Positions 9,563 to 43,137 of a DNA stretch of 64,000 bases are shown in pieces. Each line of letters begins with the position of its first letter. Positions within the stretch are counted from its first letter, which is position 1. The notes beneath the pieces were generated by a model. The model saw only the letters and a program-made list of their open reading frames with translations. It was not told the DNA's origin and did no database searches. The DNA is from Candidatus Poribacteria bacterium. Lineage in GTDB: Bacteria; Poribacteria; WGA-4E; GCA-2687025. The stretch covers positions 512,001 through 576,000 of the forward strand of contig OY762492.1 of the NCBI GenBank assembly GCA_963665845.2. The letters run 5' to 3'. The position numbers and the translations under genes are program-made.

Positions 9563-10324
9563 TTACTGCGTTTTCAGTTCCGCCCATGCGGACGCCATCT
9601 TGCCGTTCGGATCGACCGACAGCAGCGCGTCGAATCCGTCCGTATGGATAGAGGCGATCTCGTCTTCGGAGAGGGCGGAATGGAAGAAACCGACCTCGTC
9701 CAGTACGCCTTCCCAGGTTTCGGTACCCTGCCGTCCGATTTTCAGGAACTTGTAGGGTCCAAGCTCGCCCGCATAGTCGGCGGAGCCGACCTCTTCGCCG
9801 TTGACGTACTGCAGCGCTTTTCCGGCGTCGGCGTCCATGACCATGGCGACATGGAACCAGGTGTCCGCTTCCAGCTTTTTGTTTTTAGGCAGATTGACAT
9901 TCCCTCCGCCGGGCGGGATGAATCGACCCCAGAGCGTGTGGGAATTTTCAACCCAGATGCCGATGATCTTGGTGGCGGGGGCGCCTTCGTCCGTATCGGT
10001 CGCCTGGGCATGGAGCAGCCCTGGGTTGTTGCTGGGCAGGGCGGAGTATTTTGCCCAGATCACATAGGTGACCGTGTTCGAGTGCGGAACCGGCGCCAAG
10101 ACGTAGGAACCGTCCGCGGCGGCGAGCTGAACGCCTTTGCCCCAGTCGGTGTCAACGCGTTCGCCCCCGTTGACGAATTCGCCGTCGTTGCCGTTCCCGG
10201 ATGAGTCTACGGCGTCGTTCCCGTCTCCGTCGAACCGCCATAAACCGACGAGATCGTCTCGGGCGGCGAAGGCGTTCAGGGCGAGAGCCGCGATTCCAAT
10301 GATGCAGATGGCTGCGCGTTTCAT
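9563..10324 (-). CDS. Secreted LamG/concanavalin-like protein with conserved C-terminal motif
   Basis: Signal peptide; LVGLWRFD, DSSGNGNDG, WFHVAMV, YVNG, GVLDEV; ends LSVDPNGKMASAWAELK. Confidence 0.85.
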   Translation of the reverse strand: MKRAAICIIGIAALALNAFAARDDLVGLWRFDGDGNDAVDSSGNGNDGEFVNGGERVDTDWGKGVQLAAADGSYVLAPVPHSNTVTYVIWAKYSALPSNNPGLLHAQATDTDEGAPATKIIGIWVENSHTLWGRFIPPGGGNVNLPKNKKLEADTWFHVAMVMDADAGKALQYVNGEEVGSADYAGELGPYKFLKIGRQGTETWEGVLDEVGFFHSALSEDEIASIHTDGFDALLSVDPNGKMASAWAELKTQ

Positions 10325-10430
10325 ATCGTCTCCTCTTGCGTTATGCGGTGTTATCGTTTTTCATGATAGCGCATTGTCGGCGCGTTGTCTTTGAACGCTG
10401 CCGTTGCTGAAAACGAGGCGGGAGGCTTCT

Positions 10431-11303
10431 ATGCGCGTGGAGCGGTTTAAACAGAACCCGATCATCGTTCCGGACATGGACGAACGGATGGGCGGCAACA
10501 TCAACGGACCCTCGCTCATACGGGTTCCAGAATGGATCGAGAATCGGCTGGGGAACTATTATCTGTATTTTGCGCATCATGGCGGCAAATATATTCGCAT
10601 GGCGTATGCGGACGCCTTGGAGGGACCTTGGCAAACCTACGAGCCTGGCGTGTTGGATTTGGCGGATTCGTTTTCCCGAGGTCATATCGCGTCGCCGGAT
10701 GTCCATATCTATGAATCGAAGCGCGAGATTCGAATGTACTACCATGGTCCCGATCCGAAGGAGCCTGGGCAGGTGTCGAGAGTCGCGCTCTCGTCGGATG
10801 GGCTGAATTTCACGGCGCGCCCTGAAATTTTGGGCGTCTTTTACTTCCGCGTCTTTCAATGGAACGGCATGCATTACGCCCTCGGCATGCCGGGCATCTT
10901 CTACCGCTCCAAGGACGGGCTGACCAATTTTGAGGAAGGACCGCATCTGTTCACCCCAGACATGCGGCATTCCGCCGTCCGCCTTGAGCGCGGAGAGAAG
11001 GGGGAGCGGCTGCGCGTCTTTTTCTCCAACGTCGGCGACTGCCCAGAAAGCGTTTTGACGGCGACCATCGATCTGACGGAGGACTGGAACGAGTGGCGCG
11101 AATCGGAGTCGGAGACGGTCTTGGAGCCTGAAACGGAGTATGAAGGCGCCGACCTGCCCTTGAAACCGTCCCGACGCGGATGGATTCCCGTCCGCGCCCG
11201 ACAACTGCGCGACCCATGCCTCTTTGAAGAGGACGGAAAGCTGTACCTGCTCTACTCGGTCGCCGGCGAATCGGGCATCGCCATCGCGCGTTTAGATCAA
11301 TGA
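10431..11303 (+). CDS. Five-bladed beta-propeller glycoside hydrolase-like protein (GH43/GH130-like)
   Basis: NPII, NINGPS, YYLYFAHH, HIASPDV, LRDP, LYSVAGE. Confidence 0.65.
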   Translation: MRVERFKQNPIIVPDMDERMGGNINGPSLIRVPEWIENRLGNYYLYFAHHGGKYIRMAYADALEGPWQTYEPGVLDLADSFSRGHIASPDVHIYESKREIRMYYHGPDPKEPGQVSRVALSSDGLNFTARPEILGVFYFRVFQWNGMHYALGMPGIFYRSKDGLTNFEEGPHLFTPDMRHSAVRLERGEKGERLRVFFSNVGDCPESVLTATIDLTEDWNEWRESESETVLEPETEYEGADLPLKPSRRGWIPVRARQLRDPCLFEEDGKLYLLYSVAGESGIAIARLDQ

Positions 11304-11381
11304 AGCGCCGAAAGAACCGCGCTAACCAGCGGAAAAACCTTCGAGCCGCCCGGCGTCATTCCCGCGCCCTTCCTCGTCATT

Positions 11382-11528
11382 TGTATGTCGGCAATCCCAT
11401 CTTCTTGCAGCTCACGGCCGGAGCCTTGGAGCGCAATTTCCTTGCCGTCCGGGGACCACTCAGGGTACTCATAGGACGCGCCGCTGTTCGTTAGATTGAC
11501 GACGTTGCGCCCGTCCGAACTCCTCGTA
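11382..11528 (-). pseudogene. Fragment of TolB/PD40 beta-propeller gene
   Basis: Frame reads SDGRNVVNLTNSGASYEYPEWSPDGKEIA...DI; no start codon; fused to a REP repeat. Confidence 0.65.
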
Positions 11529-11704
11529 TAAGATTATCATACTTCGTCGTCTGTAGAGACTGCCCATTTTTACCCTAAAGCGTCCGCTCCGCGCCCATGC
11601 GGTAAGACGCGCGGTAAGACGGCTGTCAGATTCGCCCCAACCCAAAGCCTGTCTCTGTTCGACGCATGCGCCCCCGCCCGTTTTAGAGTACCATGCTTGC
11701 GTAT

Positions 11705-11800
11705 GGGGGCGGATAGGGTCCGGCGGCTCTACCGGTCTTCAAAACCGGATACGGGCGTTTAAACGTCTGTGGTGGGTTCGACTCCCACCCGCTCCCGCCA
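11705..11800 (+). tRNA. selC: tRNA-Sec(TCA)
   Basis: 8-bp acceptor GGGGGCGG/CCGCTCCC, CCGGT-CTTCAAA-ACCGG anticodon arm, long variable arm, GCCA end, 96 nt. Confidence 0.93.
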
Positions 11801-11817
11801 AGCGCCGCGCGCCGCCC

Positions 11818-14103: not shown

Positions 14104-15306
14104 TCATCTGCCTTGCGTCCTGTCGCTTGACTGCGGATCCGAAGACGCCGATGCCGGCGCTTCTCCAGGCGCCGGCAGCGCCTCCCCGACAGCCTCGTCA
14201 GAAGGCGCTGCGGCAGATGTTTTGATCGGCGCCGCGACCGACGCATCGGAAGACCCCAACTCTTCCGATGGCGCCTCAGCCTCAGTTTCATCCTGCTCAT
14301 CAGAAGACGCCGACTCTTCCGACGAAGCCAACGAATGCAGCTCATCCAAAGGAACCCAAGGCGTCTCCCGCTTCAGAATCGCGTTCGCAAGAACCGCCAG
14401 CTTCCGCATCACCGCCACAAGAGCCGCCTTCCCAGGCTTGCCGTTCTCCTTCAGACGCTCGTAAAACACCTTCATGTCCGGGTTGAAACGAATCGCCGAC
14501 ATCGCCGACATATACAGAAGCGCGCGAACATCGCTCCGACCGCCCCAAATATGACGCCGACCTGTCGACTTACCGCTCTCGCGCGCCCAAGGAGCCAAAC
14601 CAAGCAGGGAACAGATCTGACTCCCGCTGCGCCTGCCCAACTCCGGCACATGAAGAACCAGATACGCGGAAATGAGAACCCCGAAGCCCGGAATGCTCTC
14701 CAACAGGCTGAACTTCTCGCGAAGCTCTGCCTCTTTCTTGACCAATGCCAGAGCTTCCCGCTCCGCCGCGTCACGCTTCTCTTTCAGGGACTGGATGATC
14801 TCTTCGGTCGCATCCTTGGTCGCCTCGCCGTCCAGCAGATGCTTCCGATTGGTCCACTGAGTGATCGTTTTCACCAGCTGCATGCGTATCGTCATCCAGC
14901 GGCGAGCCTTTTTCACGACCGGATCGATCGGTTTCGTTGGTTTCAGATCGCGGCTCAGCCCATACAGCGCGAGCATCTTGGCGTCCAGCGCGTCGGTCTT
15001 GGCGCGGACGCTGTAGGAGCGGATGAAGTTATGGGCAAAGTTTGGATGGCAGCGGCGGTAAGGGATCTCTGCTTCGGCGAGCAGCGACGCCAGTTTCCGC
15101 TCGTATCCGCCGGTCGGTTCAAAGACGACCATGTTGATGTCGGGGCGGGTCGTCAGGAGGCGTTTGATGAACCGCTTGATGGGGCTCGCGGCGTTTTTGA
15201 TGGTGGAGGTTTTCCCGCTGTTGATGGAGATTTCAAGCGTGTCTTTGGACGCGTCGATTCCGGCGACGATTTTGTTGCTGTTTTCGTCGTGGCGTGGTAT
15301 GTTCAT
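14104..15306 (-). CDS. IS110 DEDD recombinase/transposase with acidic C-terminal tail
   Basis: GIDASK, FEPTG, KTDALDA (DEDD); SIPGFG; ARESG catalytic Ser; AVMRKL. Confidence 0.95.
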   Translation of the reverse strand: MNIPRHDENSNKIVAGIDASKDTLEISINSGKTSTIKNAASPIKRFIKRLLTTRPDINMVVFEPTGGYERKLASLLAEAEIPYRRCHPNFAHNFIRSYSVRAKTDALDAKMLALYGLSRDLKPTKPIDPVVKKARRWMTIRMQLVKTITQWTNRKHLLDGEATKDATEEIIQSLKEKRDAAEREALALVKKEAELREKFSLLESIPGFGVLISAYLVLHVPELGRRSGSQICSLLGLAPWARESGKSTGRRHIWGGRSDVRALLYMSAMSAIRFNPDMKVFYERLKENGKPGKAALVAVMRKLAVLANAILKRETPWVPLDELHSLASSEESASSDEQDETEAEAPSEELGSSDASVAAPIKTSAAAPSDEAVGEALPAPGEAPASASSDPQSSDRTQGR

Positions 15307-15324
15307 TTTCGTTCTCCTTTCGGG

Positions 15325-15525
15325 AGAAAAGGACAAGAAGGACCGGCCTCCTTACTTGTATTCTGTAACAAGAACACGGTATCTGTGCGGAGCCTCCGGT
15401 CTTTCTTGTCTTCTTTGCGCGGCTCTCGATACTCCCGCACGGCGCCGCTGCGAAGCAACGCGCCCAAGACGGTCTGGAGTCTGACCGCGCTACCCCTTAA
15501 GTATGCGCTTACTCGAGGGGCAAGA
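15325..15525 (-). ncRNA. Putative bridge RNA of IS110 copy 1 (ends approximate)
   Basis: Non-coding left end with two stem/internal-loop/stem domains whose loops match target and donor halves. Confidence 0.7.
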
Positions 15526-18001: not shown

Positions 18002-18727
18002 TCAAAATTCAGCGCCGGCTCTCTTTAAGGCTGCCCATACCGCCGCCGATTTGCCTGACGGATCGACCGACAGCGCGCCCGCCGGCCCGTATACCTTCAC
18101 ATCGTCGTAGGACGCCTGCGTCGCCCATGTCGCCACGCCGATGCGTCCAACGCCGTCCCGCGCCGCGTCTTTCATTTCGGCGACCTTCTCGTCGTTCAGG
18201 TAGAGCGTGTAGCCGTCTGCGCGGTTTTCGATGCGTATCTCGTACCATTCATTCGTTGCGATGGTATGGTTCGAGTGCGCGCCGGAAATTCCGCCGCCCC
18301 ACGCTTCGACCTGCGAGCGGGAGTTGTTCCATCCGCCGAGGTTCCACCAGTATTGCAGCCTTGCCTGTTCCGCCATGCGCGGCGGATGGTCTCGAAGCGC
18401 TTTTCCGCGCGGCTCCATCGTCCCCTGACAGCGAAACATGATCAGAAAGCCCTCGGCGCCGCCGGTCTTTTTGCCGCGCACTTCGTAGGTGTACTCCACC
18501 CAGCTCTCGTCCCAGTACTCGTCCGCGACGACCGACATGGCGTTCGATTCGCCGCTCTTTTGGAGGTATTCGCCCCCGTTGAATTCCCAGGTTCCCCAAA
18601 GGTCAACCCATTTCTTGTCGGACTCGTTCACATTGGAGAAGTCGTCCTCAAAGTACAATTGCGCGTCAGCAGAGATTGTCCACGCCGCCGTCAACAGAAC
18701 CATGATGAGCAAGATCGTTTTTTTCAT
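18002..18727 (-). CDS. Secreted DUF1080/lectin-fold protein with conserved C-terminal motif
   Basis: Signal peptide, FEDDF, NLGGWNN, GRIG..T, YDDVKV; ends LSVDPSGKSAAVWAALK. Confidence 0.7.
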   Translation of the reverse strand: MKKTILLIMVLLTAAWTISADAQLYFEDDFSNVNESDKKWVDLWGTWEFNGGEYLQKSGESNAMSVVADEYWDESWVEYTYEVRGKKTGGAEGFLIMFRCQGTMEPRGKALRDHPPRMAEQARLQYWWNLGGWNNSRSQVEAWGGGISGAHSNHTIATNEWYEIRIENRADGYTLYLNDEKVAEMKDAARDGVGRIGVATWATQASYDDVKVYGPAGALSVDPSGKSAAVWAALKRAGAEF

Positions 18728-20130: not shown

Positions 20131-21180
20131 TTAAAACTGCTCATACTCGTCTGGGCGGAGCCGCTCGGAGGTACTTGTTTGTTTCATCTGTACCGTCACC
20201 GTTGCGATGGTACCGCTCTCTTCGCCTGTCATGGACATGACCGCGTTGTTGATGATCTTGGTTTTGACGGGCCACCGATCCTCCTTGGAGATATGGACGG
20301 TACCCTCCATGTCGTACGATTCCATGTTGAGCGCGAGATTCACGCCCTCAATCTGTAGCGAGGCGGTTCCCTCCGCCAGCTTGCCTTCGCCGGTCAGCTC
20401 TAAAACGTGGGACGGAATTTTTTTAACGACCTTGTCCCCTTGGCGCGACCAGTTGAGCTGAATATCGGTCGTTATGGAGGTACCTTCCAGCTCCTCCTCC
20501 ACCTGCATCTCCTCTTCCCAAAGGTACTCGTTCAGCTTTGGGTAAACGAGGCCGGGAGCGATGATGTTGTGCTTCAAGCTCGCCTCGTTAAGGAAATCGA
20601 GGCTGGGTCCGCCGCTGTCGCCGCCGATCGATTCCAGCGCTGTCAAGAATTCCTTCGCCGCCGTCTTTTTGATTTCGCCGCGCGGCGTCATCGTGATTTT
20701 AAACGGCTCGTTCAAAAGCGACTTCGCGGATTCGGTTATCTCTCGGCTCGTTTCCTCCTTCATCTGCTCAATCTCCCCCTGCGGAAGATCCGGCGGAAAA
20801 GCTCCGCTAATGCCCGTCAAGGCGACATCAAACTTCTTATACTTCGTTTCGATGATCCCGTTCCCGTTTTCGACAACCTCAACAACGCGCTGCTCAATCA
20901 CCGAGTCGATCTCAAATTTCATTTTGATCGCTCCGGCGGGAGTGTTGATCGTCATTTCGATTTTCTGCTTGTCGCGGTAGGCGAACAGATCCCCCTCCTG
21001 CAGCCGAAAGCGGAGCGGGCCGTCTGTCTGCTCTGTCAGCTCCGTCGGCGACAGCGGCTCAACAGCTTCCTCCGTCGGCGTCAACAGCCCGTCCGTCTGC
21101 CCCGCCGGCGGGAGCAGACCCAACATCGCCAGCGCCAAACCTGTCAACATATACCGCGCCATTCGCCGTTCGTTCATCAT
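20131..21180 (-). CDS. Secreted hypothetical protein (DUF6263-like), paralog A
   Basis: Signal peptide; LRFRLQEG...FKITMTPRGEI; tandem paralog of the next gene. Confidence 0.65.
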   Translation of the reverse strand: MMNERRMARYMLTGLALAMLGLLPPAGQTDGLLTPTEEAVEPLSPTELTEQTDGPLRFRLQEGDLFAYRDKQKIEMTINTPAGAIKMKFEIDSVIEQRVVEVVENGNGIIETKYKKFDVALTGISGAFPPDLPQGEIEQMKEETSREITESAKSLLNEPFKITMTPRGEIKKTAAKEFLTALESIGGDSGGPSLDFLNEASLKHNIIAPGLVYPKLNEYLWEEEMQVEEELEGTSITTDIQLNWSRQGDKVVKKIPSHVLELTGEGKLAEGTASLQIEGVNLALNMESYDMEGTVHISKEDRWPVKTKIINNAVMSMTGEESGTIATVTVQMKQTSTSERLRPDEYEQF

Positions 21181-21218
21181 TGCGCTCCTTCGCCGTTGCC
21201 GTTTTCCTCTGCCTTTGC

Positions 21219-22262
21219 TTAAAACTGCTCATACTCGTCTGGGCGGAGCCGCTCGGAGGTAATTGTCTGTTTCATCTGCGCCGTCACCGTATCGATGGCG
21301 CCGCACTGTTCGCCTGTCATGGATAAGACCTGGTTGCTGACGATCTTGGTTTTGACGGGCCACCGATCCTCCTTGGAAATATGGACGGTACCCTCCATGT
21401 CGTACGATTCCAGGCTGACCGCGACATCCACGCCGTCAATCTGTAGCGAGGCGGTTCCCTCCGCCATCTTGCCTTCGGCGGTGAATTCCAAAATGTGCGA
21501 CGGGATTTTTTTGACAACCTTGTCCCCCTGACGAGACCAATCGATCTTCACATCGGTCGTCACAGAGCTGCCTTCCATCTTTTCAACGACCTTCATCTCC
21601 GACTTCCAGACATACTCCTCCAGCTTTGGAAACTCGAGGCCAGGGACAATGCGGTTTATCTTCAAGGTCTCTTCGGCGAACCAATCCTTGAAGGCGATCG
21701 GCAAGCCCGCAGGGAGTTCTATCGATTCTACCGCCGCTAAGAACTCTTTTGCGTCCACTTTTTTGATTTCGCCGCGCGGCGTCATCGTAACTTTGTACGG
21801 CTCGTTCAGGATCGGCGTTAAAAGCTCGGTCATCATGCGGCTCGCGGTCTCCATCGCCTGGTCAATCTCCTCCTGCGAAATGCCTGGCGGAACAAGCCCG
21901 CCAATGCCCAACAAAACGATGTCAAACGTCTTAAACTTCGTTTCAATGATCCCGTATCCGTTTTCTGCCACCTCAACAACGCGCTGCTCAACCACCGAGT
22001 TGACCTCATACTTCATTTTCATCGGTCCGCCGGGAGTGTCAGCGTTGATTTCGATTTTCTGCTTGCTGCGGTAGGCGAACAGATCGCCCTCCTGCAGCCG
22101 AAAGCGGAGCGGTCCATCGACTTTCTCCGCCGGCGTCAGCGGCTCAACCGCTTCCTCTGTTGGCGTCAGCAGCCCGTCCGTCTGCCCCGCCGGCGGCAGA
22201 AGACCCAACATCGCCAGAGCCAAACCTGTCAACACATACCGCGCCATTCGCCGAGACCGCAT
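21219..22262 (-). CDS. Secreted hypothetical protein (DUF6263-like), paralog B
   Basis: N- and C-termini near-identical to paralog A. Confidence 0.65.
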   Translation of the reverse strand: MRSRRMARYVLTGLALAMLGLLPPAGQTDGLLTPTEEAVEPLTPAEKVDGPLRFRLQEGDLFAYRSKQKIEINADTPGGPMKMKYEVNSVVEQRVVEVAENGYGIIETKFKTFDIVLLGIGGLVPPGISQEEIDQAMETASRMMTELLTPILNEPYKVTMTPRGEIKKVDAKEFLAAVESIELPAGLPIAFKDWFAEETLKINRIVPGLEFPKLEEYVWKSEMKVVEKMEGSSVTTDVKIDWSRQGDKVVKKIPSHILEFTAEGKMAEGTASLQIDGVDVAVSLESYDMEGTVHISKEDRWPVKTKIVSNQVLSMTGEQCGAIDTVTAQMKQTITSERLRPDEYEQF

Positions 22263-22340
22263 CGCGCTCTCCTTTTCAAAACCTTCAACACCGTTTCTAC
22301 ATTTAAGCATATATGAAAGAGACCGGAAATGCAAACGAAG

Positions 22341-28311: not shown

Positions 28312-28754
28312 CCCGCCTGAAACATATCCTGTTGATACATGGTCCCAATCTGCAGCTGCTCGGACAGCGGCGGACGGAGGTGTACGGGAAAACGACGTTG
28401 GAGCAGATCAACGCGCGGGCGCGAAAACAGGCGGACGAAGCGGGTTTGCGCCTCACCGCGTTTCAGTCCAACAGCGAGGGGGAGCTGGTCGACTTTATCG
28501 GGCGGCATCTGGGCAAGGCGGACGGCGCTGTCATCAACCCCGCCGCCTACACGCACACAAGCGTCGCCCTGCGGGACGCGCTGGAGGCGCTGGAGATTCC
28601 GGTCATTGAGGTTCACCTGTCGAACATCGCGGCGCGGGAGTCGTTTCGACAGCATTCGTATATCGCGCCGATTGCGGTCGGCTCCATCGCCGGCTTCGGC
28701 GCGGACAGCTATCGACTTGCATTGGACGCTATGATTCAGATACTCTGTAGTTAG
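28308..28754 (+). CDS. aroQ: Type II 3-dehydroquinate dehydratase
   Basis: HGPNL..LG.R..EVYG, QSNSEG, NPAAYTHTS, EVHLSN. Confidence 0.96.
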   Translation: MTRLKHILLIHGPNLQLLGQRRTEVYGKTTLEQINARARKQADEAGLRLTAFQSNSEGELVDFIGRHLGKADGAVINPAAYTHTSVALRDALEALEIPVIEVHLSNIAARESFRQHSYIAPIAVGSIAGFGADSYRLALDAMIQILCS

Positions 28755-29861: not shown

Positions 29862-31259
29862 GTGTTTAAAAAAGTGCTTGTCGCCAACCGCGGCGAAATT
29901 GCCGTTCGCATTATCCGCGCCTGCAAGGAGCTGGGGGTGAAAACGGTCGCCGTCTACTCGGAGGCGGACCGCGACTCCATGCCGACGCAGCTGGCGGACG
30001 AGGCGGTCTGCATCGGACCGCCGCATCCGTCCAAGAGCTATCTGCATATACCGGCGGTCATCTCGGCGGCGGAGGTGACGAATGCGGACGCGATACATCC
30101 TGGAGCCGGTTTTTTGGCGGAGAATTCGCAGTTTGCGGAGATCTGCGGCGAATGCCGTATCGCGTTCATCGGTCCGACGCCTCAAAACATCGAGACGATG
30201 GGTAACAAGGTGGCCGCCCGTAAAGCCGCGCAGGCGGCGGGCGTCCCGCTGGTTCCCAGCTCTTCAAAGCCCCCGCGCCGGCGCCGGCGCATGCAGCAGG
30301 AAATGCGCGAAACGGTTGAAACCGAAGAGGAGGCGTTGAGCGTCGCCCGCGAAATCGGATACCCTGTCATGATCAAGGCGGCGGCGGGCGGCGGCGGAAG
30401 AGGCATGCGCGCCGCCCACAACGACGTCAGCCTCGCCAACCTGTTTAAAACAACCAGAGCGGAAGCGGAAGCCGCCTTCGGATCCGCAGAGGTGTACTTA
30501 GAAAAACTGATCGAAAAAGCGCGCCATATCGAAGTTCAGATACTCGCCGATCATCACGGCAACATCGTTCATCTCGGCGAACGGGACTGCTCGGTTCAGC
30601 GCAAACATCAGAAACTGATTGAAGAGACCCCGTCCGCGCTGGACGTAAAACGGCGCAATGAGATCGGATATGTGGCCGCTAAAGCCTCCAAAGCGATCCA
30701 GTACCGCAGCGCCGGGACGGTCGAGTTTCTGGTGGATGAGGAGATGAACTACTACTTTTTAGAGATGAACACGCGCATTCAGGTTGAGCATACCGTGACG
30801 GAGATGACGACGGGGCTTGACCTTGTGAAGTGGCAGATGCGCATTGCGGCGGGGGAGCGGCTCGATTTTGACCAGCGGGATGTGAAGCTGCAGGGGCATG
30901 CGATTGAATGCCGCATCAACGCGGAAGACCCGGCGAACGGGTTCGCGCCTTCGCCTGGGACGATTTCGCGGTACGACCCGCCGGGCGGTCCGGGGATACG
31001 GATCGACACGCATATTTACGCCGGTTATTCGACTCCGCCGTTTTACGATTCGCTGCTGGCGAAGCTGATTGCGCACGGCGCCGACCGAAACGAAGCGATC
31101 GCGCGAATGCGCCGCGCCTTAAACGAGTTTGTAATTGAGGGCGCGCATACGACGATCCCGTTTCACCGCGCCGTCATGGAGGACGCGACCTTCTTGGCGG
31201 CGAAGGCGCACACCGGCTTTCTGGAAACCTTCAACGCGCCGATTTCATCCCTGCGCTAA
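29862..31259 (+). CDS. accC: Biotin carboxylase
   Basis: ANRGEIA, GGGGRGMR, EMNTRIQVEH, ECRINAED. Confidence 0.96.
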   Translation: MFKKVLVANRGEIAVRIIRACKELGVKTVAVYSEADRDSMPTQLADEAVCIGPPHPSKSYLHIPAVISAAEVTNADAIHPGAGFLAENSQFAEICGECRIAFIGPTPQNIETMGNKVAARKAAQAAGVPLVPSSSKPPRRRRRMQQEMRETVETEEEALSVAREIGYPVMIKAAAGGGGRGMRAAHNDVSLANLFKTTRAEAEAAFGSAEVYLEKLIEKARHIEVQILADHHGNIVHLGERDCSVQRKHQKLIEETPSALDVKRRNEIGYVAAKASKAIQYRSAGTVEFLVDEEMNYYFLEMNTRIQVEHTVTEMTTGLDLVKWQMRIAAGERLDFDQRDVKLQGHAIECRINAEDPANGFAPSPGTISRYDPPGGPGIRIDTHIYAGYSTPPFYDSLLAKLIAHGADRNEAIARMRRALNEFVIEGAHTTIPFHRAVMEDATFLAAKAHTGFLETFNAPISSLR

Positions 31260-31954
31260 CCGCCGCCGATCGGACCCATGAATAGCCCGATGACATGCGG
31301 GGTGAACCAGTCGTTGACCAGAAACTCCACCCGCTGAATCAGCAGCGTGACGCGGTTCATGACCGTGTTGCCGAAGGCGGAGCCGAAACAGATCATCAGA
31401 AACCAGATGCCGAGGCGCGAGACGGAGCCGACGCCGCCCTTATGTTCAATAGAAAAGAAAAAGTAGGTGAGCGCCGCGAGCGTCCCGACTAGAACGATGG
31501 TGAGGTTCACCATCGGCCAAAACTCCTTCGCGCCCTCTTTGCTATACGGCGCGATGGTCGCGTACATCTGCTGAAAGATTTGGGAGCCGAGGATTAAAGG
31601 TATGGCGATGCCCGCGGCGGCGCCGAACAGGAACGCGAGCGGCAGACGGGTGAGCCATCCTTTCCCCGCCCAGAAACGCGCGAAAAACAGCAGCCCAATC
31701 AGAAACGGTATCAGAACGACAAACTCGATCCGCGCAGCAGGCTCGCCGTCAACGCCGACTGTCGCCCGTTGAAGCGGAACGATCCCATAGGGCCAAAGCC
31801 CGTTGAAGTAGCTGTAGACGATCCAGTAACCCTGGGACATGCCGACGAACAGATGCTCGGCGAATTTATAAAACGGGTTGTCCTTGTAAAGAAAGCTGTA
31901 GAGGCAGAGCGTCAAAAATGCGGCGATCCAGACGCCGATGGTTTCCCAGTTCAC
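31256..31954 (-). CDS. Conserved hypothetical multi-TM protein (membrane cluster gene 4)
   Basis: SFLYKDNPFYKFAEHLFVG, YFFFS, FGSAFGNTVMNR; about 6 TM segments. Confidence 0.8.
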   Translation of the reverse strand: MNWETIGVWIAAFLTLCLYSFLYKDNPFYKFAEHLFVGMSQGYWIVYSYFNGLWPYGIVPLQRATVGVDGEPAARIEFVVLIPFLIGLLFFARFWAGKGWLTRLPLAFLFGAAAGIAIPLILGSQIFQQMYATIAPYSKEGAKEFWPMVNLTIVLVGTLAALTYFFFSIEHKGGVGSVSRLGIWFLMICFGSAFGNTVMNRVTLLIQRVEFLVNDWFTPHVIGLFMGPIGGG

Positions 31955-32802
31955 GAGCCGTCCCTTTCGTCGAGTCGGCGCATCATATAGAGCGCGTTTC
32001 CAAAGACGACCAGACCGATGACGAGAAAATGCGCGAATGAGAGTACCGAAACGCGCTTCATGCCGTCGCCGGGGGCGTCCACTAGAGCTTCGTATTCGGC
32101 TCCGCCGAGCGCGCCGCCGAGCAAGCCCTGCAGCTGTCCGGAATCTAAAAACGGGTACATCTGCGAGACGATGACGCCTGTCACGCCGGCGGCAAGCGGA
32201 ACGCCATGCGGCTCATTGCCGTACTGAATCCAGGAGTCGACGCTGTCGCCCGCCGCAAAATCGATCACCAAGTTGACGTCGGCGAAGGTGGAGACGCCCG
32301 CCATCGCCGGCAGCGCGTCGAGAGCCTCGCCGCGCGTGTCCGTCTCAAAGAAGCCGGGTATGTTGCCTGCCATGCGCAAAATGACCAGATGAAATCCGAC
32401 CCTGTAACCGACATCCGCATAATGTTCGCCGGGCTTCAGGCGGCTTTCTTCTCCGTCCATGAACTCGTCGCTCGTCCGCACCTTCTCCAGCGCTTGAACC
32501 GCCAGCGCCGGCGAGTCCGCCGTCAGCGACATCATCATGACGCGCAGCTTTTTGCGGAAGCAGTGGCGCAGAACCGCCTCCACCTGCGGCTGCAGCTCCG
32601 CCATGGAGGACGGACCGTAACCGAAGGAGAGAATCACAAAATCGTTCTCGTTGAGCGATTCGATCTTGTCGTACACGCGCTGCGTCGCGTTCGAGACCGG
32701 CACAGGGAACGTGACGGAGAAGATGGTTGGAAGGATGACAAACAGAGCCATCAACAGAAACACCCAGCGCCGATCCATCTGTTTTGGCTGCTCGGCGTTC
32801 AT
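31951..32802 (-). CDS. Conserved hypothetical membrane protein (membrane cluster gene 3)
   Basis: N- and C-terminal TM; YPFLDSGQLQGLLGG..GGAEYE. Confidence 0.8.
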   Translation of the reverse strand: MNAEQPKQMDRRWVFLLMALFVILPTIFSVTFPVPVSNATQRVYDKIESLNENDFVILSFGYGPSSMAELQPQVEAVLRHCFRKKLRVMMMSLTADSPALAVQALEKVRTSDEFMDGEESRLKPGEHYADVGYRVGFHLVILRMAGNIPGFFETDTRGEALDALPAMAGVSTFADVNLVIDFAAGDSVDSWIQYGNEPHGVPLAAGVTGVIVSQMYPFLDSGQLQGLLGGALGGAEYEALVDAPGDGMKRVSVLSFAHFLVIGLVVFGNALYMMRRLDERDGS

Positions 32803-33755
32803 TCGTCTCCTCCTAGATAGGTTTGTTCAATTCCGAGTATGATTCGGAACGACTGCGCCAGCGCGCCGAGTCCAACGCCGAGAACAATCGCCCGGCGGGC
32901 GGCAAGGTTGGGAACCTCTAGCACCCAGTCCTTTGCTTCAGACGGGAACCCCTGCAGCGAGTCCGCAAAGCCGAACGCGCTGTTCCACCAGTGAATGAAC
33001 GGCGGGGTCAAGCCGAGAATGACGACGCATGCCGAGATGAGCAGCAGCGCCGCTTCAATGTTGCGCGCGCGAAAAGCGCGAAAAGCGGCGGACGCAATGA
33101 AAAACGCGAGCAGCGAAAACATGGTCGCGTCCAGCGGCACTTGGACATTCTCAAAGAGCCATAGAAACACATCCAAGCCGGGGCGGCGAATCGCGAAGGA
33201 ATCGCCTTGAACGGGAGGATCGCCGTTTCTCCATTTATCGACCTGAACGCGGACGACGGGCGGCGCGTCTTCCGCAGCCGCTTCGTCGGTCGGCTCCTCA
33301 ACAATTTTGCCTTCAAAAAAGGAACCGTCCGCCTTCGGGAGCTGGAGCCGATCCCCCTTCAAGATCGACTTGGCGGCGATGTTTTCGGCGCTGAGCATAA
33401 CGACCATGCCGTTGCGCTCATAGGACGCTTCCGCGCTGTACTCGGAGAGCTTCGATTTGACAATCTGCTTGGCGGGCTGGCGGTGTCCCTCAATGACGCC
33501 GACGGCCGTCATGCCAAACAGGGCGACCAGCGCGACAATGCTGTATTTCCAGTCGCCTTGGCGGCGGACGGCGCGCTGCCAGTGAAGCTTCACAAGGCTT
33601 GCGACGCCGAGAACCAGCGCGAACACTCCGATCAGGAGCATCCAGTCGTAGACGCGCCTGTTCAGCTCCTGAGACCACGCATGCGGCACAAAATATTGCG
33701 CCAGCATGACGGCGCCCATCACAAAGCAGACCGCGATCGGCAGCTGCATCCGCAT
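32799..33755 (-). CDS. Conserved hypothetical multi-TM protein (membrane cluster gene 2)
   Basis: PLDATMFSLLAFFIASAAFRAFRAR, PNLAARRAI, RIILGIE. Confidence 0.8.
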   Translation of the reverse strand: MRMQLPIAVCFVMGAVMLAQYFVPHAWSQELNRRVYDWMLLIGVFALVLGVASLVKLHWQRAVRRQGDWKYSIVALVALFGMTAVGVIEGHRQPAKQIVKSKLSEYSAEASYERNGMVVMLSAENIAAKSILKGDRLQLPKADGSFFEGKIVEEPTDEAAAEDAPPVVRVQVDKWRNGDPPVQGDSFAIRRPGLDVFLWLFENVQVPLDATMFSLLAFFIASAAFRAFRARNIEAALLLISACVVILGLTPPFIHWWNSAFGFADSLQGFPSEAKDWVLEVPNLAARRAIVLGVGLGALAQSFRIILGIEQTYLGGDE

Positions 33756-33756
33756 G

Positions 33757-35109
33757 CTACATCTCCACCTTAAAGATGTCGGCTAAATCCGGGGATCCGA
33801 ACAGCGCCATGACGACGCCGACAATCATCAGAATCATCAGAACCGCCTTGGCGACATCCTGGGCGCGAATGGCGCTCAAGAGCGGGGCGTCCTGGGAGAG
33901 GTAGGCGCTGGCGGCAAACAGCTCCTCGCCGATCAGCGTGTAGTCGCATGCGGCGATAAAGAACGGGAGCTGCGCGTCCCTGTCGGTGCCTGCAATCTGT
34001 ATCGCGCCGACGCTATGCCCAGTCTCCGCCAAGATGAGCGATTCGGCGTAAAAGACGCCCTGCAGGAAGATGGCGGCAGGCTCCTCGCGCACAATGATTC
34101 CGTCCACGCCGGCGGCGTACGCGAATTGACTTTCGGTCACAAAAAAGATGTTGTCGGGGTCGTATAGGTCCGGCCGCCCGATGCTTTGATAGGTTTGCTC
34201 TCCGACGGTGCGCATGACCTGCATGACGATCGGGTCGTAGCAAGGGACCATAATTCGCGTCGCATGTTCGGCTGCCGTTTTGATGACATGGCTGAAGATA
34301 TTGATGGAGGCGATGGTGGCCATCTGCTGAACGCTGCCGATGCCGGCGATGTAGAGAATGGGCTTGTCCATCTCGGCGCTGCGTCCGATCGCCTCTTCAA
34401 CCGCTTCCAGACCGTCAATGCGGCGTATGCGCGGCGGATCGCCTTCCCTGGAGCGGTAGGTCAAGACGACGAGCGTTCCGCAGAACAGCAGCGCCGCGGC
34501 GAGAAGCCATGAGCGCCCCGTGTGAAACCAGTTGGAGCGGGCGGCGGCGGGCGCGCTTTCCGCCGAGTTGACGGCGGAAGCCTCATACACTTCCTGAACG
34601 GCGTAAATATACGGAACCGCTTTTTCGCGGGTGAAGAGCGGATCTTTTCGGGCGGGCGCGGCGGAGGCGTCCCTGTAATCGCGCGCGGTCGGCGGAAGCG
34701 GCTCGGCGGTGATTTTCTCTAAACTGGAGCCTGGCGCGTCCGCGCGGCGCAGGATATGGAACCCAACGAGGCTCTCGCTCGGCTCGCCTTCATACTCCCA
34801 TACGACGTCCAAGCCCTTGCCGCTGTCGTCGTTTGGGACATCCGCCGCCCTTACATTCTTGACGGAAGAAGAGCTGTAAAGAGTGTAAAGAGTAATATCT
34901 TCCGCTGTGAATTCAGTCACGGATTCGTCAAATGTGATTGTGGACTCCAAGCCTTGTCCGCTGTCGTTCTGAGCATCGTCCTCTGTGACGGCATTATCGT
35001 CGGCGGATTCGATGGCGGTTTGCGCATGGCAAACAGATCCGCTCCAAACGCCGGCGAATAAAACCAGTAAGCCCGCCCAACGCAGCGTATGTCTCAAAAC
35101 GCTCTTCAT
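33757..35109 (-). CDS. FN3-like plus DUF6754-like membrane protein (membrane cluster gene 1)
   Basis: Signal peptide; ADVPNDDSG..W; IRRIDGLEAVEEAIGRSAEM; FYAESLILAE; QLPFFIAACDYTLIGEELFAA. Confidence 0.75.
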   Translation of the reverse strand: MKSVLRHTLRWAGLLVLFAGVWSGSVCHAQTAIESADDNAVTEDDAQNDSGQGLESTITFDESVTEFTAEDITLYTLYSSSSVKNVRAADVPNDDSGKGLDVVWEYEGEPSESLVGFHILRRADAPGSSLEKITAEPLPPTARDYRDASAAPARKDPLFTREKAVPYIYAVQEVYEASAVNSAESAPAAARSNWFHTGRSWLLAAALLFCGTLVVLTYRSREGDPPRIRRIDGLEAVEEAIGRSAEMDKPILYIAGIGSVQQMATIASINIFSHVIKTAAEHATRIMVPCYDPIVMQVMRTVGEQTYQSIGRPDLYDPDNIFFVTESQFAYAAGVDGIIVREEPAAIFLQGVFYAESLILAETGHSVGAIQIAGTDRDAQLPFFIAACDYTLIGEELFAASAYLSQDAPLLSAIRAQDVAKAVLMILMIVGVVMALFGSPDLADIFKVEM

Positions 35110-35143
35110 AACGCCTCCGACCCGTTCCGTACGGCTTGCCGCG

Positions 35144-35680
35144 TCAAAATGCGGCGTGTTCAACAAAGGTATCATACGCTTTCTCATTAAACAACGCAAA
35201 CAGAACCAGCTCAAGCGACGCATCCTCCGCCAAAAAAGCGGCGACTGCCGACGACGCCTCCGCCGCCGCTTTATCCGGCGGATAGCCGAAGACGCCTGTT
35301 GAGATCGCCGGAAAGGCGACCGTCTTGCATCCGAGTTCGACCGCCGTTTTGAGCGCGTTTCTATAGCAACTGCGCAGCTTTTCAGGTTCGCCGGCATCTC
35401 CGCCATGCCAGACCGGCCCGACGGTGTGAATCACATACCGGGCGGGCATGTCGCCGGCGGTTGTCGCCGCCGCCTCGCCGACCGGCAAACCGTTCCGATA
35501 TTTTGTGCGGCGCAGCGTTTTACATTCAGCCAAGATCGCAGGTCCCCCCGCGCGGTGGATGGCGCCGTCGACTCCTCCTCCGCCCATGAGAGTACCGTTC
35601 GCCGCGTTCACAACGGCGTCCACCTCCAGCTGCGTGATGTCCGCGACCTTCGCCGCGGCGCGTTCGCCGAAACGCTTCAT
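35144..35680 (-). CDS. Macrodomain O-acetyl-ADP-ribose deacetylase (YmdB-like)
   Basis: VNAAN..LMGGGGVDGAIHRAGG, HTVGP, FPAISTGVFGYP. Confidence 0.93.
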   Translation of the reverse strand: MKRFGERAAAKVADITQLEVDAVVNAANGTLMGGGGVDGAIHRAGGPAILAECKTLRRTKYRNGLPVGEAAATTAGDMPARYVIHTVGPVWHGGDAGEPEKLRSCYRNALKTAVELGCKTVAFPAISTGVFGYPPDKAAAEASSAVAAFLAEDASLELVLFALFNEKAYDTFVEHAAF

Positions 35681-36771
35681 CCTTCGCTCCCTTCCGCCTC
35701 ATACCCGTTCATCGTGAACGCAACGCCGAGCGCTTGATCGGGCGTCTGGATCAATTTTTCGCATGCTTCGGCGGCGTTGTCAATCGGAACCATGTCGGTG
35801 ATGAGCGTCTTGACATCCAGCCGCCCCTCCGCCATGAAGCGCAAAACCGTTTCTAAATTGCGCTGCGTCGGGCGCTCCACAAACACAGGCGGATAATGCG
35901 CCCCCCGTTCATACGCTTTATCATGGTAGCCTGGTCCGGTGCGCGCCGCGCTTATGACGTCGATATTGCCCGCGCCGGCGGCGAAGCTGTGCTGTATCGA
36001 CGCGCCGCCGACAATGACGATGCGCCCCGTCTTATGTCCGTCGGGGGTCGTTTTTAAAAGGGCGCGCAGCTGTTGAAACGCGCCGGTAGCGTCCCCGCCG
36101 AACGCGATGACGCCGGCGTCAAATCCGTACCCGTTTGTGAATTCGTCTCTCACATGGCTGACATCCATTTCCGCCGCGTTTTCGACTCGGTCGGCGCCCG
36201 CCCGCCGCGCCGTTTCTAGACGCAGCGCGTTCATATCCAGTCCGAGAACATGCGCGCCGGCGATGCGCGCCGTTTGACATACCAGCTGCCCGACCATGCC
36301 GAGTCCAGCGACGGCGACATTTTCGGCGATGCCGATGCGCCCGCGCTGTATGGCGTGGAGCGCCGTCGCGGCGAGATGGCACGCGGCGCCTTCCTCATAA
36401 GAGACGCCGTCCGGCATTTTGGCGCACAGGTTTTGAGGGATGTTCGCATGCGTCGCGTGGAGCGCGTATCCGCCGCCCATCCCTGCGATTCGGTCGCCGA
36501 TTTCAAACTGCCCGCAGCCCTCCCCCTTGCCAATCAGAACGCCCGCGTTGGAATATCCGAAGGCGCGTTTGCCGGGGTTTTCTTTATGCCGGCTGCGTCG
36601 GTTTTTCACGCCGCCCAGCTCGGTGCCGGGACTGACGAGAGAGGCGCGAACTTCGATCAAAAGCTCGCCAGCGCCGAGCGGAGGGAGAGGAGCCTCCTCC
36701 GTCCAGATGCGGCCGTTGTCGTCCATGAAGACAACCTTGCGGGAAGAGGTTGAAGGCGCGGATCGGCTCAT
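35677..36771 (-). CDS. MDR/Zn-binding alcohol dehydrogenase-like oxidoreductase
   Basis: SPGTE, GYSNAG, GLGMVG. Confidence 0.85.
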   Translation of the reverse strand: MSRSAPSTSSRKVVFMDDNGRIWTEEAPLPPLGAGELLIEVRASLVSPGTELGGVKNRRSRHKENPGKRAFGYSNAGVLIGKGEGCGQFEIGDRIAGMGGGYALHATHANIPQNLCAKMPDGVSYEEGAACHLAATALHAIQRGRIGIAENVAVAGLGMVGQLVCQTARIAGAHVLGLDMNALRLETARRAGADRVENAAEMDVSHVRDEFTNGYGFDAGVIAFGGDATGAFQQLRALLKTTPDGHKTGRIVIVGGASIQHSFAAGAGNIDVISAARTGPGYHDKAYERGAHYPPVFVERPTQRNLETVLRFMAEGRLDVKTLITDMVPIDNAAEACEKLIQTPDQALGVAFTMNGYEAEGSEG

Positions 36772-39100: not shown

Positions 39101-39101
39101 A

Positions 39102-40269: not shown

Positions 40270-40396
40270 ATGAAGTTCATCGCATAAGCGTACTGCCTCG
40301 TCGTGTAAAAGTTGAAACGGGGCGCGTTTGCGGCTATCGTATACGTTCCCGCGCCTTCATCAATGAAACAAACGGGCGGGTTAGACCGGAGGGTAT

Positions 40397-41419: not shown

Positions 41420-41475
41420 GTTGACGCGCGCGCCGTTTTCAAGTACGCTGCTCAAAATAAATTGAGAGGACAATC

Positions 41476-42063
41476 ATGAAACGTCAATTCGGTCTAGCGG
41501 CGTTCGGATGTTTTACCGCGGCGGCGCTTCTAGTTTCACTTCACGGCTGCGGAGATGACACGCACGACCATGAACCGCACACCACCCCCTTCGAAGAGAT
41601 CGCAAACGCGATCGCCGTCATTCATCCGACTGAAGGCAATACGGCGTCAGGCGTTGTGAAATTCATGGCGATGGAAGGCGGCGTCCATGTTACCGCGCAG
41701 GTCACAGGTCTCACGCCGAACGCGTCGCACGGGTTCCATATTCACCAGTACGGCGACTGCTCCGCCGCGGACGGGACGAGCGCCGGCGGGCATTACGACC
41801 CTGAAATGACCGGCCGCCATGGCTTGCCGGACAGCGAGGAGCCGATACACGCCGGCGACCTCGGCAACCTGGACGCCGACGAAAACGGCGAAGCGACCTA
41901 CGACAAAATGATCATGGGCATCAGCATCGGCGGAACCGACAGCCCGATTTTGGGGCGGGGAGTCATTGTACATGCGCTGCCGGACGACGGCGGTCAGCCG
42001 ACAGGCAACGCCGGCGCGCGCATCGGGTGCGGCGTCATCGGGGTCGCCAACCCTGGCAACTGA
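41476..42063 (+). CDS. sodC: Cu/Zn superoxide dismutase lipoprotein
   Basis: LHGC lipobox, HGFHIH, SAGGHY, HAGDLGN, GNAGARIGCG. Confidence 0.95.
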   Translation: MKRQFGLAAFGCFTAAALLVSLHGCGDDTHDHEPHTTPFEEIANAIAVIHPTEGNTASGVVKFMAMEGGVHVTAQVTGLTPNASHGFHIHQYGDCSAADGTSAGGHYDPEMTGRHGLPDSEEPIHAGDLGNLDADENGEATYDKMIMGISIGGTDSPILGRGVIVHALPDDGGQPTGNAGARIGCGVIGVANPGN

Positions 42064-42100
42064 GGCGGCGTCTCAACGAAACGCGAACGTCGGCGCCAAC

Positions 42101-42269
42101 CTGACCTCATGCAGAAAGTTGGGACATCATGACGAAAGAACCGCGATGATCTGCGGGAAAGCTGTCGCGCCAACTCGCCGTCATTCCCGCGTAAGCGGGA
42201 ATCTAGAGGCGCCGAAGAAGACATCCGCGTTCACTAGGCAGAATGTCCCAACTAAAGACTCAAGGTCAG
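42101..42269. mobile_element. MITE-A, complete copy with CGCCAAC target duplication
   Basis: TIRs ctgacc...ggtcag; cgccaac on both sides. Confidence 0.85.
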
Positions 42270-42279
42270 CGCCAACCGC

Positions 42280-42308
42280 TTGACATATGTTTCTTAAAAG
42301 CGTACAAT
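42280..42308 (+). promoter_or_regulatory. sigma70-like promoter
   Basis: TTGACA-17 nt-TACAAT. Confidence 0.75.
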
Positions 42309-42345
42309 GCCGCTCAACATCAACTCAATGTAACGAGGAGACACG

Positions 42346-43137
42346 ATGAAAGCGACAATGTCAACATGGACGGCGGCAGGCGCGTTCGCCCTCGCCGCGC
42401 TTTTCCTTTTCCAAACAACGCTCCACGCGGGGCGGGAAGACTGCGGCGAATTGCCGAAAAACTTCCCCGTGCCTGCCGTTGAAGCGGCGAATGAAGACCT
42501 GAACACGCCGAACGACTACTCCTCGGTGGTCGAAGAAGATGAACGCGCCGGCGTCGTCTATCTGGCGCTCTCCAACGGTTCCTCCCCGAACGCGAACGAC
42601 TGCGGCTTAAGCCCGTCCAACGACCAAGGCGCATGGACAGGCTGGGGCGGTCCCATCGACCTTGAGAACGTGACAATCGGCGAAGGCGGCGGAACGCGCA
42701 ACGAAATCGTCATCGGCGGCGTCTATTACAAACGCGGCCTCGGCGCGCATGCGGTCAGCACGCTCGAATACGACTTGTCCGGCGCCAACTATGTCCAGTT
42801 TGAAGCGTGGGTCGGAATGTCGGACGAAAAAGATCCCGGCGGCTGCGGACACGGAGGAACGAGCGACTTCACCTTCTCCATTGACGGAACCGAAATCGTC
42901 AAAACGCCGACGCTCCCCGGAGCGGACGGCGGAGAAAATGTCGCGCCCTTCGAGGTGAAATTCGACATACCGGCGAACGCAGAAAAGCTGACGATCGTCA
43001 TGGGCGACGGCGGAGACGGCATCGGCTGCGACCACTCCAGCATCGGAGACGCGAAGCTGCTGACTTCCGAGGCTCTCTCGGTCGACCCGAACGGCAAAGC
43101 CTCCGCGCTGTGGGGAACGCTCAAGTCAACCCGATAA
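42346..43137 (+). CDS. Secreted NPCBM/NEW2-domain protein with conserved C-terminal motif
   Basis: IVIGGVYYKRGLGAHA, FEAWVG, DGGDGIGCDH; ends LSVDPNGKASALWGTLK. Confidence 0.85.
   Translation: MKATMSTWTAAGAFALAALFLFQTTLHAGREDCGELPKNFPVPAVEAANEDLNTPNDYSSVVEEDERAGVVYLALSNGSSPNANDCGLSPSNDQGAWTGWGGPIDLENVTIGEGGGTRNEIVIGGVYYKRGLGAHAVSTLEYDLSGANYVQFEAWVGMSDEKDPGGCGHGGTSDFTFSIDGTEIVKTPTLPGADGGENVAPFEVKFDIPANAEKLTIVMGDGGDGIGCDHSSIGDAKLLTSEALSVDPNGKASALWGTLKSTR

Follow-up and report, generated by a model that had tools for sequence, protein, structure and literature searches.

A short tryptophan-containing tail on unrelated, presumably exported proteins of Poribacteria and its possible link to type IX secretion

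What does it mean when three otherwise unrelated and presumably exported proteins end in nearly the same short peptide? The question is raised by a stretch of 64,000 nucleotides from a Candidatus Poribacteria genome (contig OY762492.1, positions 512,001 to 576,000), called the window throughout, in which a LamG protein, a DUF1080-like protein and an NPCBM protein each carry a predicted signal peptide and a 17-residue C-terminal tail, here called the tag. The reading that we tentatively prefer, at somewhat less than even confidence, is that the tag is a short address read by the phylum's outer-membrane machine resembling a type IX secretion system (T9SS), which would carry small proteins to the cell surface.

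A tail shared by unrelated, presumably exported proteins

A first-pass annotation of the window had described three open reading frames (ORFs) with different bodies and shared tails of about 17 residues, and this was borne out by the open frames, by the tails that it quoted and by the Pfam bodies, all of whose matches stop upstream of the tail. NCBIfam assigned none of the three proteins to a family, and a six-frame motif scan found exactly three copies of the tag in the window. Signal peptides were called by eye and with a crude heuristic, and their cleavage boundaries are approximate.

9563..10324, minus strand: LamG (Laminin_G_3) protein, 253 aa, predicted signal peptide, C-terminal tag (Pfam PF13385, E 1e-19)
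9572..9622, minus strand: tag copy 1, 17 codons, 2 residues before the stop (profile score 36.0 bits)
10262..10324, minus strand: predicted Sec signal peptide of the LamG protein, about 21 aa, boundary approximate (sequence read and heuristic)
18002..18727, minus strand: DUF1080/3keto-disac_hyd-like protein, 241 aa, predicted signal peptide, C-terminal tag (Pfam PF06439, E 1.5e-7)
18023..18073, minus strand: tag copy 2, 17 codons, 6 residues before the stop (profile score 29.7 bits)
18662..18727, minus strand: predicted Sec signal peptide of the DUF1080-like protein, about 22 aa, boundary approximate (sequence read and heuristic)
42346..43137, plus strand: NPCBM/NEW2 protein, 263 aa, predicted signal peptide, C-terminal tag (Pfam PF08305, E 1.8e-23)
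43075..43125, plus strand: tag copy 3, 17 codons, 3 residues before the stop (profile score 31.2 bits)
42346..42429, plus strand: predicted Sec signal peptide of the NPCBM protein, about 28 aa, boundary approximate (sequence read and heuristic)

A further tagged small protein, without a Pfam family, is encoded 4 kb before the window (C1:507609-508100 of the source genome, G000), and a Cu/Zn superoxide dismutase gene with a lipoprotein-like N-terminus (window 41476-42063, plus strand) lies directly upstream of the tagged NPCBM gene.

How widely is the tag used within this genome? G000 amounts to 3.98 Mb in 3 contigs and is 90% complete, with roughly 3100 crudely called genes. A position-blind pattern gave 92 matches, from which we built a tail profile, and this profile returned 111 matches of at least 12 bits among 76,112 six-frame ORFs and 0 once those ORFs were reversed. 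None of the 111 is further than 26 residues from the stop; uniform placement would put 13.2 in the last 30 residues. Our working set is made up of 119 ORFs (at least 9 bits, at least 100 residues and at most 30 residues after the match; short and weak matches excluded), which, once their ends were removed, fell into 22 unrelated BLAST body clusters: 42 TolB-like propellers, 24 LamG proteins and 17 DUF1080-like proteins, to the last two of which the respective window proteins belong, and 19 small clusters or singletons, the NPCBM protein being a singleton. Among the 58 of the 119 scanned with Pfam, other bodies matched CBM9, CBM4/9, GH43_C2-like, PKD with weak cohesin, DUF4960 and AhpC/TSA; lectin-like or carbohydrate-binding folds were common, and many bodies had no Pfam family. 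The signal-peptide heuristic was passed by 102 of the 119 against 822 of 3001 other crudely called ORFs (several of the failures being split or mis-started ORFs), and a later membrane helix occurs in 0 of the 119. The tag is thus a portable C-terminal module on unrelated proteins with predicted signal peptides, as had been claimed, and two observations that might have overturned the claim, an equal frequency at internal positions and an equal frequency on cytoplasmic proteins, failed to materialize. All LamG homologs found by BLAST in the genome are tagged (the 24 and one with a divergent tag). The 42 exported TolB-like propellers represent a lineage expansion and often stand in tandem (for example L033:7533-9799 and L035:13-1173).

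The tag is present throughout the phylum. Its profile matched 151 of 151 Poribacteria genomes sampled, with up to 52 candidates scored per genome, most genomes at or near 52 and the lowest two at 9 and 13. In a library of 1.84 billion proteins it found 121 at E 0.001, of which 119 carry the tag, never more than 19 residues from the end. The NPCBM protein has 120 listed homologs: 118 keep the tag by a strict pattern, down to 54% identity, and the other two differ at the Val; all seven organism-named rows are Poribacteria, and one of the LamG proteins that bear the tag in G000 shows 81% identity to a protein named Candidatus Poribacteria. The statement in the first-pass annotation that similar tails occur in Poribacteria proteomes was therefore sound, and the check that it had suggested, a hidden Markov model with counts per proteome, gave the strong matches in G000 and the matches across the phylum reported above.

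In an alignment of 65 tags, two positions, Val and Trp, never vary, and conservation of Pro, Gly and the final Lys is at least 90%, the near-invariant residues being Val, Pro, Gly, Lys, Trp and Lys. The tag starts with Leu/Thr followed by Ser/Ala-Val-Asp/Glu, and its core is Trp-Gly/Ala-x-Leu/Ile-Lys; of 77 non-TolB tags, 63 have Ser at W-11 and 72 have Val at W-10. Codons at the conserved positions are chosen as elsewhere in the genome, and conservation is absent from the 40 bases past the stop, from which it follows that selection acts on the peptide. In an AlphaFold model of the NPCBM protein (118-row alignment), the predicted local distance difference test (pLDDT) is mostly 80-97 over the body and below 50 at residues 221-234, with a low-confidence helix at 219-233 that is unpacked against the cargo; the contrast between confident body and poorly predicted tail places the tail, in the model, outside the cargo fold, and the suspicion that it might be integral to one fold found no support there.

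Could the tail be without any sorting role, as a piece of a single fold, a repeat in the DNA at the ends of genes or a passenger of gene duplication? The frequent tandem arrangement of tagged genes (44 adjacent pairs less than 400 bp apart among 119 genes) and the concentration of 42 in one paralog family would suit such an origin, which we nevertheless regard as hardly credible in the face of 22 unrelated bodies, genome-like codon usage, unconserved DNA past the stop, tail pLDDT below 50 in both of our AlphaFold models (the second is described below) and retention of the tag in distant homologs and in every genome sampled.

The tag has no description in Pfam, NCBIfam, PDB or the literature searched (incomplete coverage, supplements excluded), and it is likely a C-terminal sorting tag as yet undescribed in that literature. 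No NCBIfam model matched any of 65 or 61 tails, Pfam and NCBIfam together yielded only scattered weak matches (best E 0.034), a PDB sequence search with the tag profile had no match (best E 0.31), and an ESM Atlas search with the tail alone was uninformative (best score 0.85, unnamed clusters only). Specifically, neither 65 tails nor the three full window proteins matched TIGR04183, PF18962 or PF13860, and no dockerin was matched by Pfam on 65 tails, nor is there an Asp/Asn-rich repeat in the tag alignment.

The first-pass annotation had also drawn an analogy with PEP-CTERM, that is, a sorting signal processed by exosortase or another intramembrane protease. Like the tripartite tags (PEP-CTERM/exosortase, PGF-CTERM, GlyGly-CTERM, MYXO-CTERM and LPXTG), our tag is a short signature near the C-terminus, present many times per genome on unrelated bodies with signal peptides, and it has a basic end; these features correspond to criteria 1-3 and 5-7 as set out in sections of a survey of such tags (bioRxiv 10.1101/2023.06.07.544157), and some bodies of the sister tag described below belong to the DUF4114, LTD and Spondin_N families. 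The same sections of the survey mention neither Poribacteria, Eisenbacteria nor T9SS (bioRxiv 10.1101/2023.06.07.544157). Unlike the tripartite tags, ours can be internal and lacks a transmembrane segment: when 15-residue windows were scored over the last 45 residues of the 119 proteins, the highest hydropathy per protein had a median of 0.58 and a maximum of 1.41. Exosortase (PF09721) was found in 1 of 31 Poribacteria genomes by a search that detected its positive control, rhombosortase and myxosortase being outside that search, and NCBIfam, as said, is silent on the tails. The analogy therefore fails as a statement of membership, and the PEP-CTERM reading, which is already largely refuted, strikes us as very improbable. 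We accordingly rejected the exosortase reading (1 of 31 genomes), the DNA-repeat reading (unconserved DNA after the stop) and the fold-part reading (AlphaFold tail outside the fold).

A somewhat less remote alternative, still unlikely in our judgment, is that the tag retains proteins in the periplasm or at a membrane leaflet through a short basic amphipathic helix with a Trp, or serves as a signal to a periplasmic chaperone or protease unrelated to T9SS. The Trp and basic residues at the end, the predicted helicity of the tag in AlphaFold and the presence of TolB-like and AhpC/TSA-like cargo, which are classic periplasmic folds, would agree with this. Against it stand a negative test for an amphipathic membrane helix, in which 76 tag cores (W-5 to W+5) had a helical hydrophobic moment at the level of shuffles (0.301 versus 0.306 +/- 0.017), and near-invariant residues that point to a specific protein partner; a periplasmic retention signal directly before a secretion domain, the arrangement to which we now turn, would make little sense.

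The tag beside type IX domains and machinery

What, then, might read the tag? The type A C-terminal domain (CTD) of T9SS cargo (PF18962) is present in 31 of 31 Poribacteria genomes, G000 has 45 type A-like CTD proteins, and the tag occurs fused to such domains. A DNA pattern with the Trp core 3-13 codons before the CTD start placed the core directly before a type A CTD in 89 of 151 genomes and 7 of 22 genera, mostly in one or two copies, and its reversed form gave 0. Of 31 loci read, 29 have the complete tag in front of the CTD, some 90-105 residues short of the protein end, and the bodies so fused (WD40, FG-GAP/ASPIC, GSDH, BNR, CARDB and subtilase, with 14 of the 22 proteins scanned) are varied enough that the fusion is not confined to one family. 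G000 has no full fusion of tag and CTD; in 17 of the 45 CTD proteins, from 4 of 13 upstream families, the Trp half is retained upstream of the CTD, a feature seen in 1 of 1628 background windows. Before tag-less CTDs, a 4-mer resembling the cut site stands in 11 of 45 cases, and in 47 of 1643 background windows; it comes from only 2 of 13 families and is not used as support. An AlphaFold model of a natural fusion (29 rows) predicted the CTD with confidence and residues 1-38 below 50, lending no support to packing of the tag on the CTD.

Tag and CTD can also be found swapped on related proteins. The signal peptide and first 207 residues of a tagged protein of 409 residues recur, at 84% identity, in a CTD protein of 1504 residues, and 214 of its residues match at 79% in another of 1604 residues; both of these longer proteins have the CTD at the end and are without the tag. 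There is moreover a split in size, with the tag on small proteins (94-486 residues, median 267) and the CTD on large ones (median 918). Two tandem arrays of WD40 proteins in G000, which bear a type A-like CTD, keep only the Trp half (L041, C1:949686-963938; L042, C1:1881487-1902675); one lies about 8 kb from sprA, the other near a PorU-like gene and two PorV-family genes.

Is there a machine that could read such an address? Passages of a 2014 single-cell study of Poribacteria report TIGR04183 domains and no structural Por secretion genes, and leave the export route open (PMC3909097). We found that tag-bearing genomes carry SprA-, PorU- and PorV-like genes. In G000 a SprA/Sov homolog of about 2150 residues (C1:935094-941555, L064) lies beside a dcw-like cell-division gene cluster; two PorU-like C25 proteins of about 2000 residues each keep the Gly-His-Gly...Cys catalytic motif; and the PorV/PorQ family (NF033709) has 12 matches, 5 of them over the cut-off, with 7-18 matches in each of 9 other tag-bearing genomes. 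SprA homologs at E<=1e-10 occur in 61 of 61 Poribacteria. Four giant exported proteins (1976-4014 aa) with divergent CTD-like ends are each followed, directly or after one gene, by their own PorV/PorQ-family gene, a pairing that resembles that of type B CTD cargo with its PorP shuttle and differs from it in that the barrels are of the PorV family.

G000 C1:829876-838211, 1858843-1865773, 2312519-2325634 and 3638941-3651578: pairs of a giant CTD-like protein and a PorV/PorQ-family gene

The machinery had at first been described as unknown. Searches of PorV neighbourhoods identified no receptor; in the surroundings, a divergent T9SS-like set is present, and in relatives of G000 the tag is joined to its CTD. 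Searches for co-occurring peptidase or translocon genes, the profiling of which had been proposed, turned up SprA-like, PorU-like and PorV-family genes, and exosortase in 1 of 31 genomes. One candidate that drew our attention is an orphan PorV-family barrel (C1:3740834-3741820), a single match in 40 of 41 Poribacteria and flanked by three tagged genes in genome G031; the other orphan-barrel loci had a tag within 1.5 kb in 0 of 30 by a strict pattern that also missed the G031 copies. A predicted complex of this barrel (31-row alignment) with the tag scored 0.01, which is not evidence either way. A quick tree of the PorV family with several wrong-frame rows (at least L227, L275, L279, L282, L283, L290 and L317) only suggested clades, which were then checked by BLAST, and no tag-specific clade was definable without tag-less controls. 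Searching tag loci with T9SS parts by tblastn gave only CTD matches, with no SprA, PorV or C25 linkage within 1.2-1.5 kb.

How close is the tag to established T9SS signals? Like the type A CTD (TIGR04183/PF18962; of PF13860 type in these phyla), it is C-terminal and portable, stands on cargo predicted to be Sec-exported and occurs in hosts with SprA-, PorV- and PorU-like genes. In the fusions it occupies the linker or cleavage-site position, and its start fits, as far as residues can tell, the PT/GI consensus with a small +1 residue: relevant sections of published work give PT/GI as the PorU cleavage consensus in Prevotella intermedia, usually with a small residue at +1 (PMC11969387), and S664-I665-A-D-V-A-N as the cleavage region in the RgpB linker (PMC4804311). 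This resemblance in sequence is what suggests that tagged cargo might be cleaved by PorU and attached to lipopolysaccharide. In the portions of the literature we drew upon, T9SS signals can be short, at 43-55 aa (PMC11969387), and different signals are served by dedicated shuttles (PMC12618676). P. intermedia's short CTDs offer, as the tag would, a second, shortened signal beside long CTDs in one genome; unlike the tag, which is about one third of their length and has none of these, they keep three beta-strands and motifs B, D and E (PMC11969387, in part). The tag differs from type A CTDs in its 17 residues, as opposed to 43-100, in having no immunoglobulin (Ig)-like fold, in that it need not be terminal, in its use on small proteins while true CTDs are on large ones, and in its occurrence outside Bacteroidota, with GldN not found in our search of G000. 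AlphaFold gives helix or coil (pLDDT below 50) for a tag this short, and neither an Ig-like beta-sandwich nor a three-strand sheet.

If our preferred reading is right, cargo would cross the inner membrane by Sec, with a tail predicted to pack on neither cargo nor CTD, and would end up outside the outer membrane, the step in which we have most confidence. The Trp-Gly/Ala-x-Leu/Ile-Lys core may then bind SprA or one of the many PorV-family barrels, as the fusion, the swap, the size split and the co-presence of the genes together suggest. In the last and weakest step, a PorU-type protease would cut before Ser/Ala-Val and the cargo would be attached to a surface glycolipid.

A sister tag in other phyla

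Does anything similar exist outside the Poribacteria? A pattern run over genome contigs found at least 129 stretches with a related tail, the sister tag, and among the 80 listed, those that were organism-named came mostly from Eisenbacteria, Krumholzibacteria, Fermentibacteria, Latescibacteria or Gemmatimonadota. In features outside the search pattern, the stop lies within 2 residues in 111 of 127, and upstream there is enrichment for Pro (62 of 127), Val/Thr (75) and Glu (56). The sister tag, known from Eisenbacteria, Krumholzibacteria, Fermentibacteria, Latescibacteria and Zixibacteria, shares with the Poribacteria tag a start of small residue-Val/Thr-Glu, a Thr-Trp-Gly-x-Ile-Lys core, a terminal position, an aromatic residue at W+7 and hosts with SprA and many PorV paralogs; it differs in being five residues shorter from Val to Trp (there is no Pro-x-Gly-Lys insert) and in the frequent Pro before Val. 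Comparison of the two profiles gave a modest and partly circular match (73%, E 3e-5). Independent of this circularity is the Tyr at W+7, where the sister tag has Tyr/Phe, in 99 of 120 listed NPCBM homologs versus 8 of 118 other representatives.

Matches to the sister profile came from 60 of 61 genomes in the phylum to which the Eisenbacteria-titled G157 belongs, from 49 of 151 in that of G164 (one match each, on a small exported protein listed under a Zixibacteria name) and from 1 of 301 in a Patescibacteria sample (0 of 300 besides G162). Of 10 genomes with the sister tag, 9 have SprA over its cut-off. The protein in the phylum of G164 is single-copy, about 135-145 aa long and without a Pfam family (L244, L252-L260); no longer homologs of it were found, and its gene follows a probable Rex-like gene in 10 of 10 loci read and precedes probable STAS-like and RsbW-like genes in 8 of 10. 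The Patescibacteria genome G162 has 1.1 Mb, no SprA match and three sister tags; in two cases the tag comes right behind the signal peptide.

L246:928-1707, minus strand: G162 sister-tag gene
L250:868-1707, minus strand: G162 sister-tag gene
L242:1498-2430, minus strand: G162 sister-tag gene

Between them, these genes encode an M23 peptidase and a nearby exported protein that shares its N-terminus, both with N-terminal tags, and an NHL protein with a C-terminal tag; they may possibly reflect mimicry of a host signal or mis-binning. The C-terminal position, as first put forward, consequently holds for the 111 strong matches in G000 and has to be relaxed for copies before a CTD and for N-terminal copies in one Patescibacteria genome.

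Weighing the readings, and their meaning

Several observations weigh against a T9SS address. Beside a CTD, it is the Trp half that is kept while the putative cut-site half is lost, and a second secretion signal at that place would be redundant. The tag is without motifs B, D and E and without a terminal beta-strand, while, in the parts of two papers that deal with recognition, these motifs contact PorV (PMC10202324) and PorV reads the terminal beta-strand of the CTD (PMC10202324; PMC11969387). A passage describing PorU cleavage as sequence-independent (PMC4804311) weakens the cut-site step. The 42 TolB-like paralogs have 7-26 more, mostly acidic, residues beyond the tag, and one tagged cargo is AhpC/TSA-like, a fold typical of the periplasm. 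The type IX-like machine is itself unproven, since SprA exceeds its cut-off in 0 of 61 Poribacteria (the G000 homolog has 182 bits against a curated cut-off of 200), the PorU-like proteins score 320 bits under an NF033707 cut-off of 420, and GldN (PF19841) was not found in the 90% complete G000 by a search in which no positive control was detected and which did not extend to GldK, GldL and GldM. A PorV paralog consistently adjacent to tagged genes was not found (0 of 30 loci). Where the sister tag would have its +1 residue, 62 of 127 copies have Pro, a poor cleavage residue. Co-occurrence of SprA and tag is confounded by kinship, many SprA-positive genomes of the Zixibacteria phylum have no tag match (102 of 151 without), and G162, unless it is mis-binned or a case of host mimicry, is evidence against a signal that is strictly terminal and strictly SprA-dependent.

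Might the tag then be a place to dock? Dockerins are small terminal modules with Ca-binding repeats that, through cohesins, gather proteins on a scaffold, and the tag could be an uncleaved analogue whose Trp core binds a conserved envelope scaffold or receptor, after export by another route or alongside the CTD, and so holds small binding proteins. We consider this a real possibility, if a less probable one than our preferred reading. It would account for position independence (terminal, before a CTD, before acidic tails and N-terminal in G162), for degenerate copies that keep only or mainly the Trp core (four among 34 untagged homologs, and the WD40-CTD proteins), for retention beside a CTD, which implies a job that the CTD does not do, and for a low-confidence helix held off the cargo, as expected of a motif that folds on binding. 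The Trp half beside CTDs, the acidic extensions, the Pro at +1 of the sister tag and the Patescibacteria copies are all better explained by docking than by a T9SS address. Like a dockerin, the tag is a small terminal module that could gather carbohydrate-binding proteins; unlike one, it is without Ca-binding repeats or a predicted independent fold, and no scaffold with a matching repeated domain was identified. Docking is also silent on how stand-alone cargo crosses the outer membrane, and in stand-alone tags the Ser/Ala-Val-Asp/Glu start, which resembles a T9SS cleavage-site motif, is as conserved as the core. The two readings are compatible if the docking partner is a T9SS part.

The window holds other genes of note. 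Transposases lie at 14107-15336 (minus strand), 22654-23844 (plus) and 49312-50424 (minus), two of the IS110 family and one DDE_Tnp_1. Two tandem paralogs of 349 and 363 aa (20134-22310, minus) have signal-like N-termini and near-identical C-termini, with neither a Pfam family nor the tag. Chorismate synthase is followed by a shikimate kinase-dehydroquinate synthase fusion of 546 aa (25542-28754, plus), and a run of membrane-protein genes, three without a Pfam family, surrounds a DUF6754 protein (31259-36771, minus). Further along are a family A DNA polymerase of 571 aa with a 3'-5' exonuclease domain and no 5'-3' exonuclease match (53109-54821, plus), and an N6/N4 DNA methyltransferase followed by a partial match to an SfiI-like restriction endonuclease (PF11487, model 118-291; 56607-58191, plus).

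What would follow if the tag is indeed a T9SS-like address? A signal of 17 residues with neither a fold nor a membrane helix would be far shorter than the T9SS signals in the literature compared, and T9SS-like sorting would extend beyond Bacteroidota. More speculatively, and we consider this broader picture doubtful, Poribacteria and at least four other uncultured phyla may possess a motor-less type IX-like system with peptide-sized signals, in which a Trp tag of 12-17 residues, read by a dedicated PorV-family barrel, would direct up to hundreds of small lectin-like and beta-propeller proteins per cell to the surface, and some Patescibacteria may have taken over the tag for their peptidoglycan hydrolases, as a means of docking on such hosts or entering them. 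The SprA, PorU-like and PorV-family genes, with the CTD fusion, make the export route of Poribacteria directly testable, and a tag profile is usable for annotating surface proteins in several candidate phyla. With about 119 of roughly 3100 genes tagged, and the tag in every Poribacteria genome sampled, this short peptide would appear to organize much of what a dominant, uncultured sponge symbiont exports.

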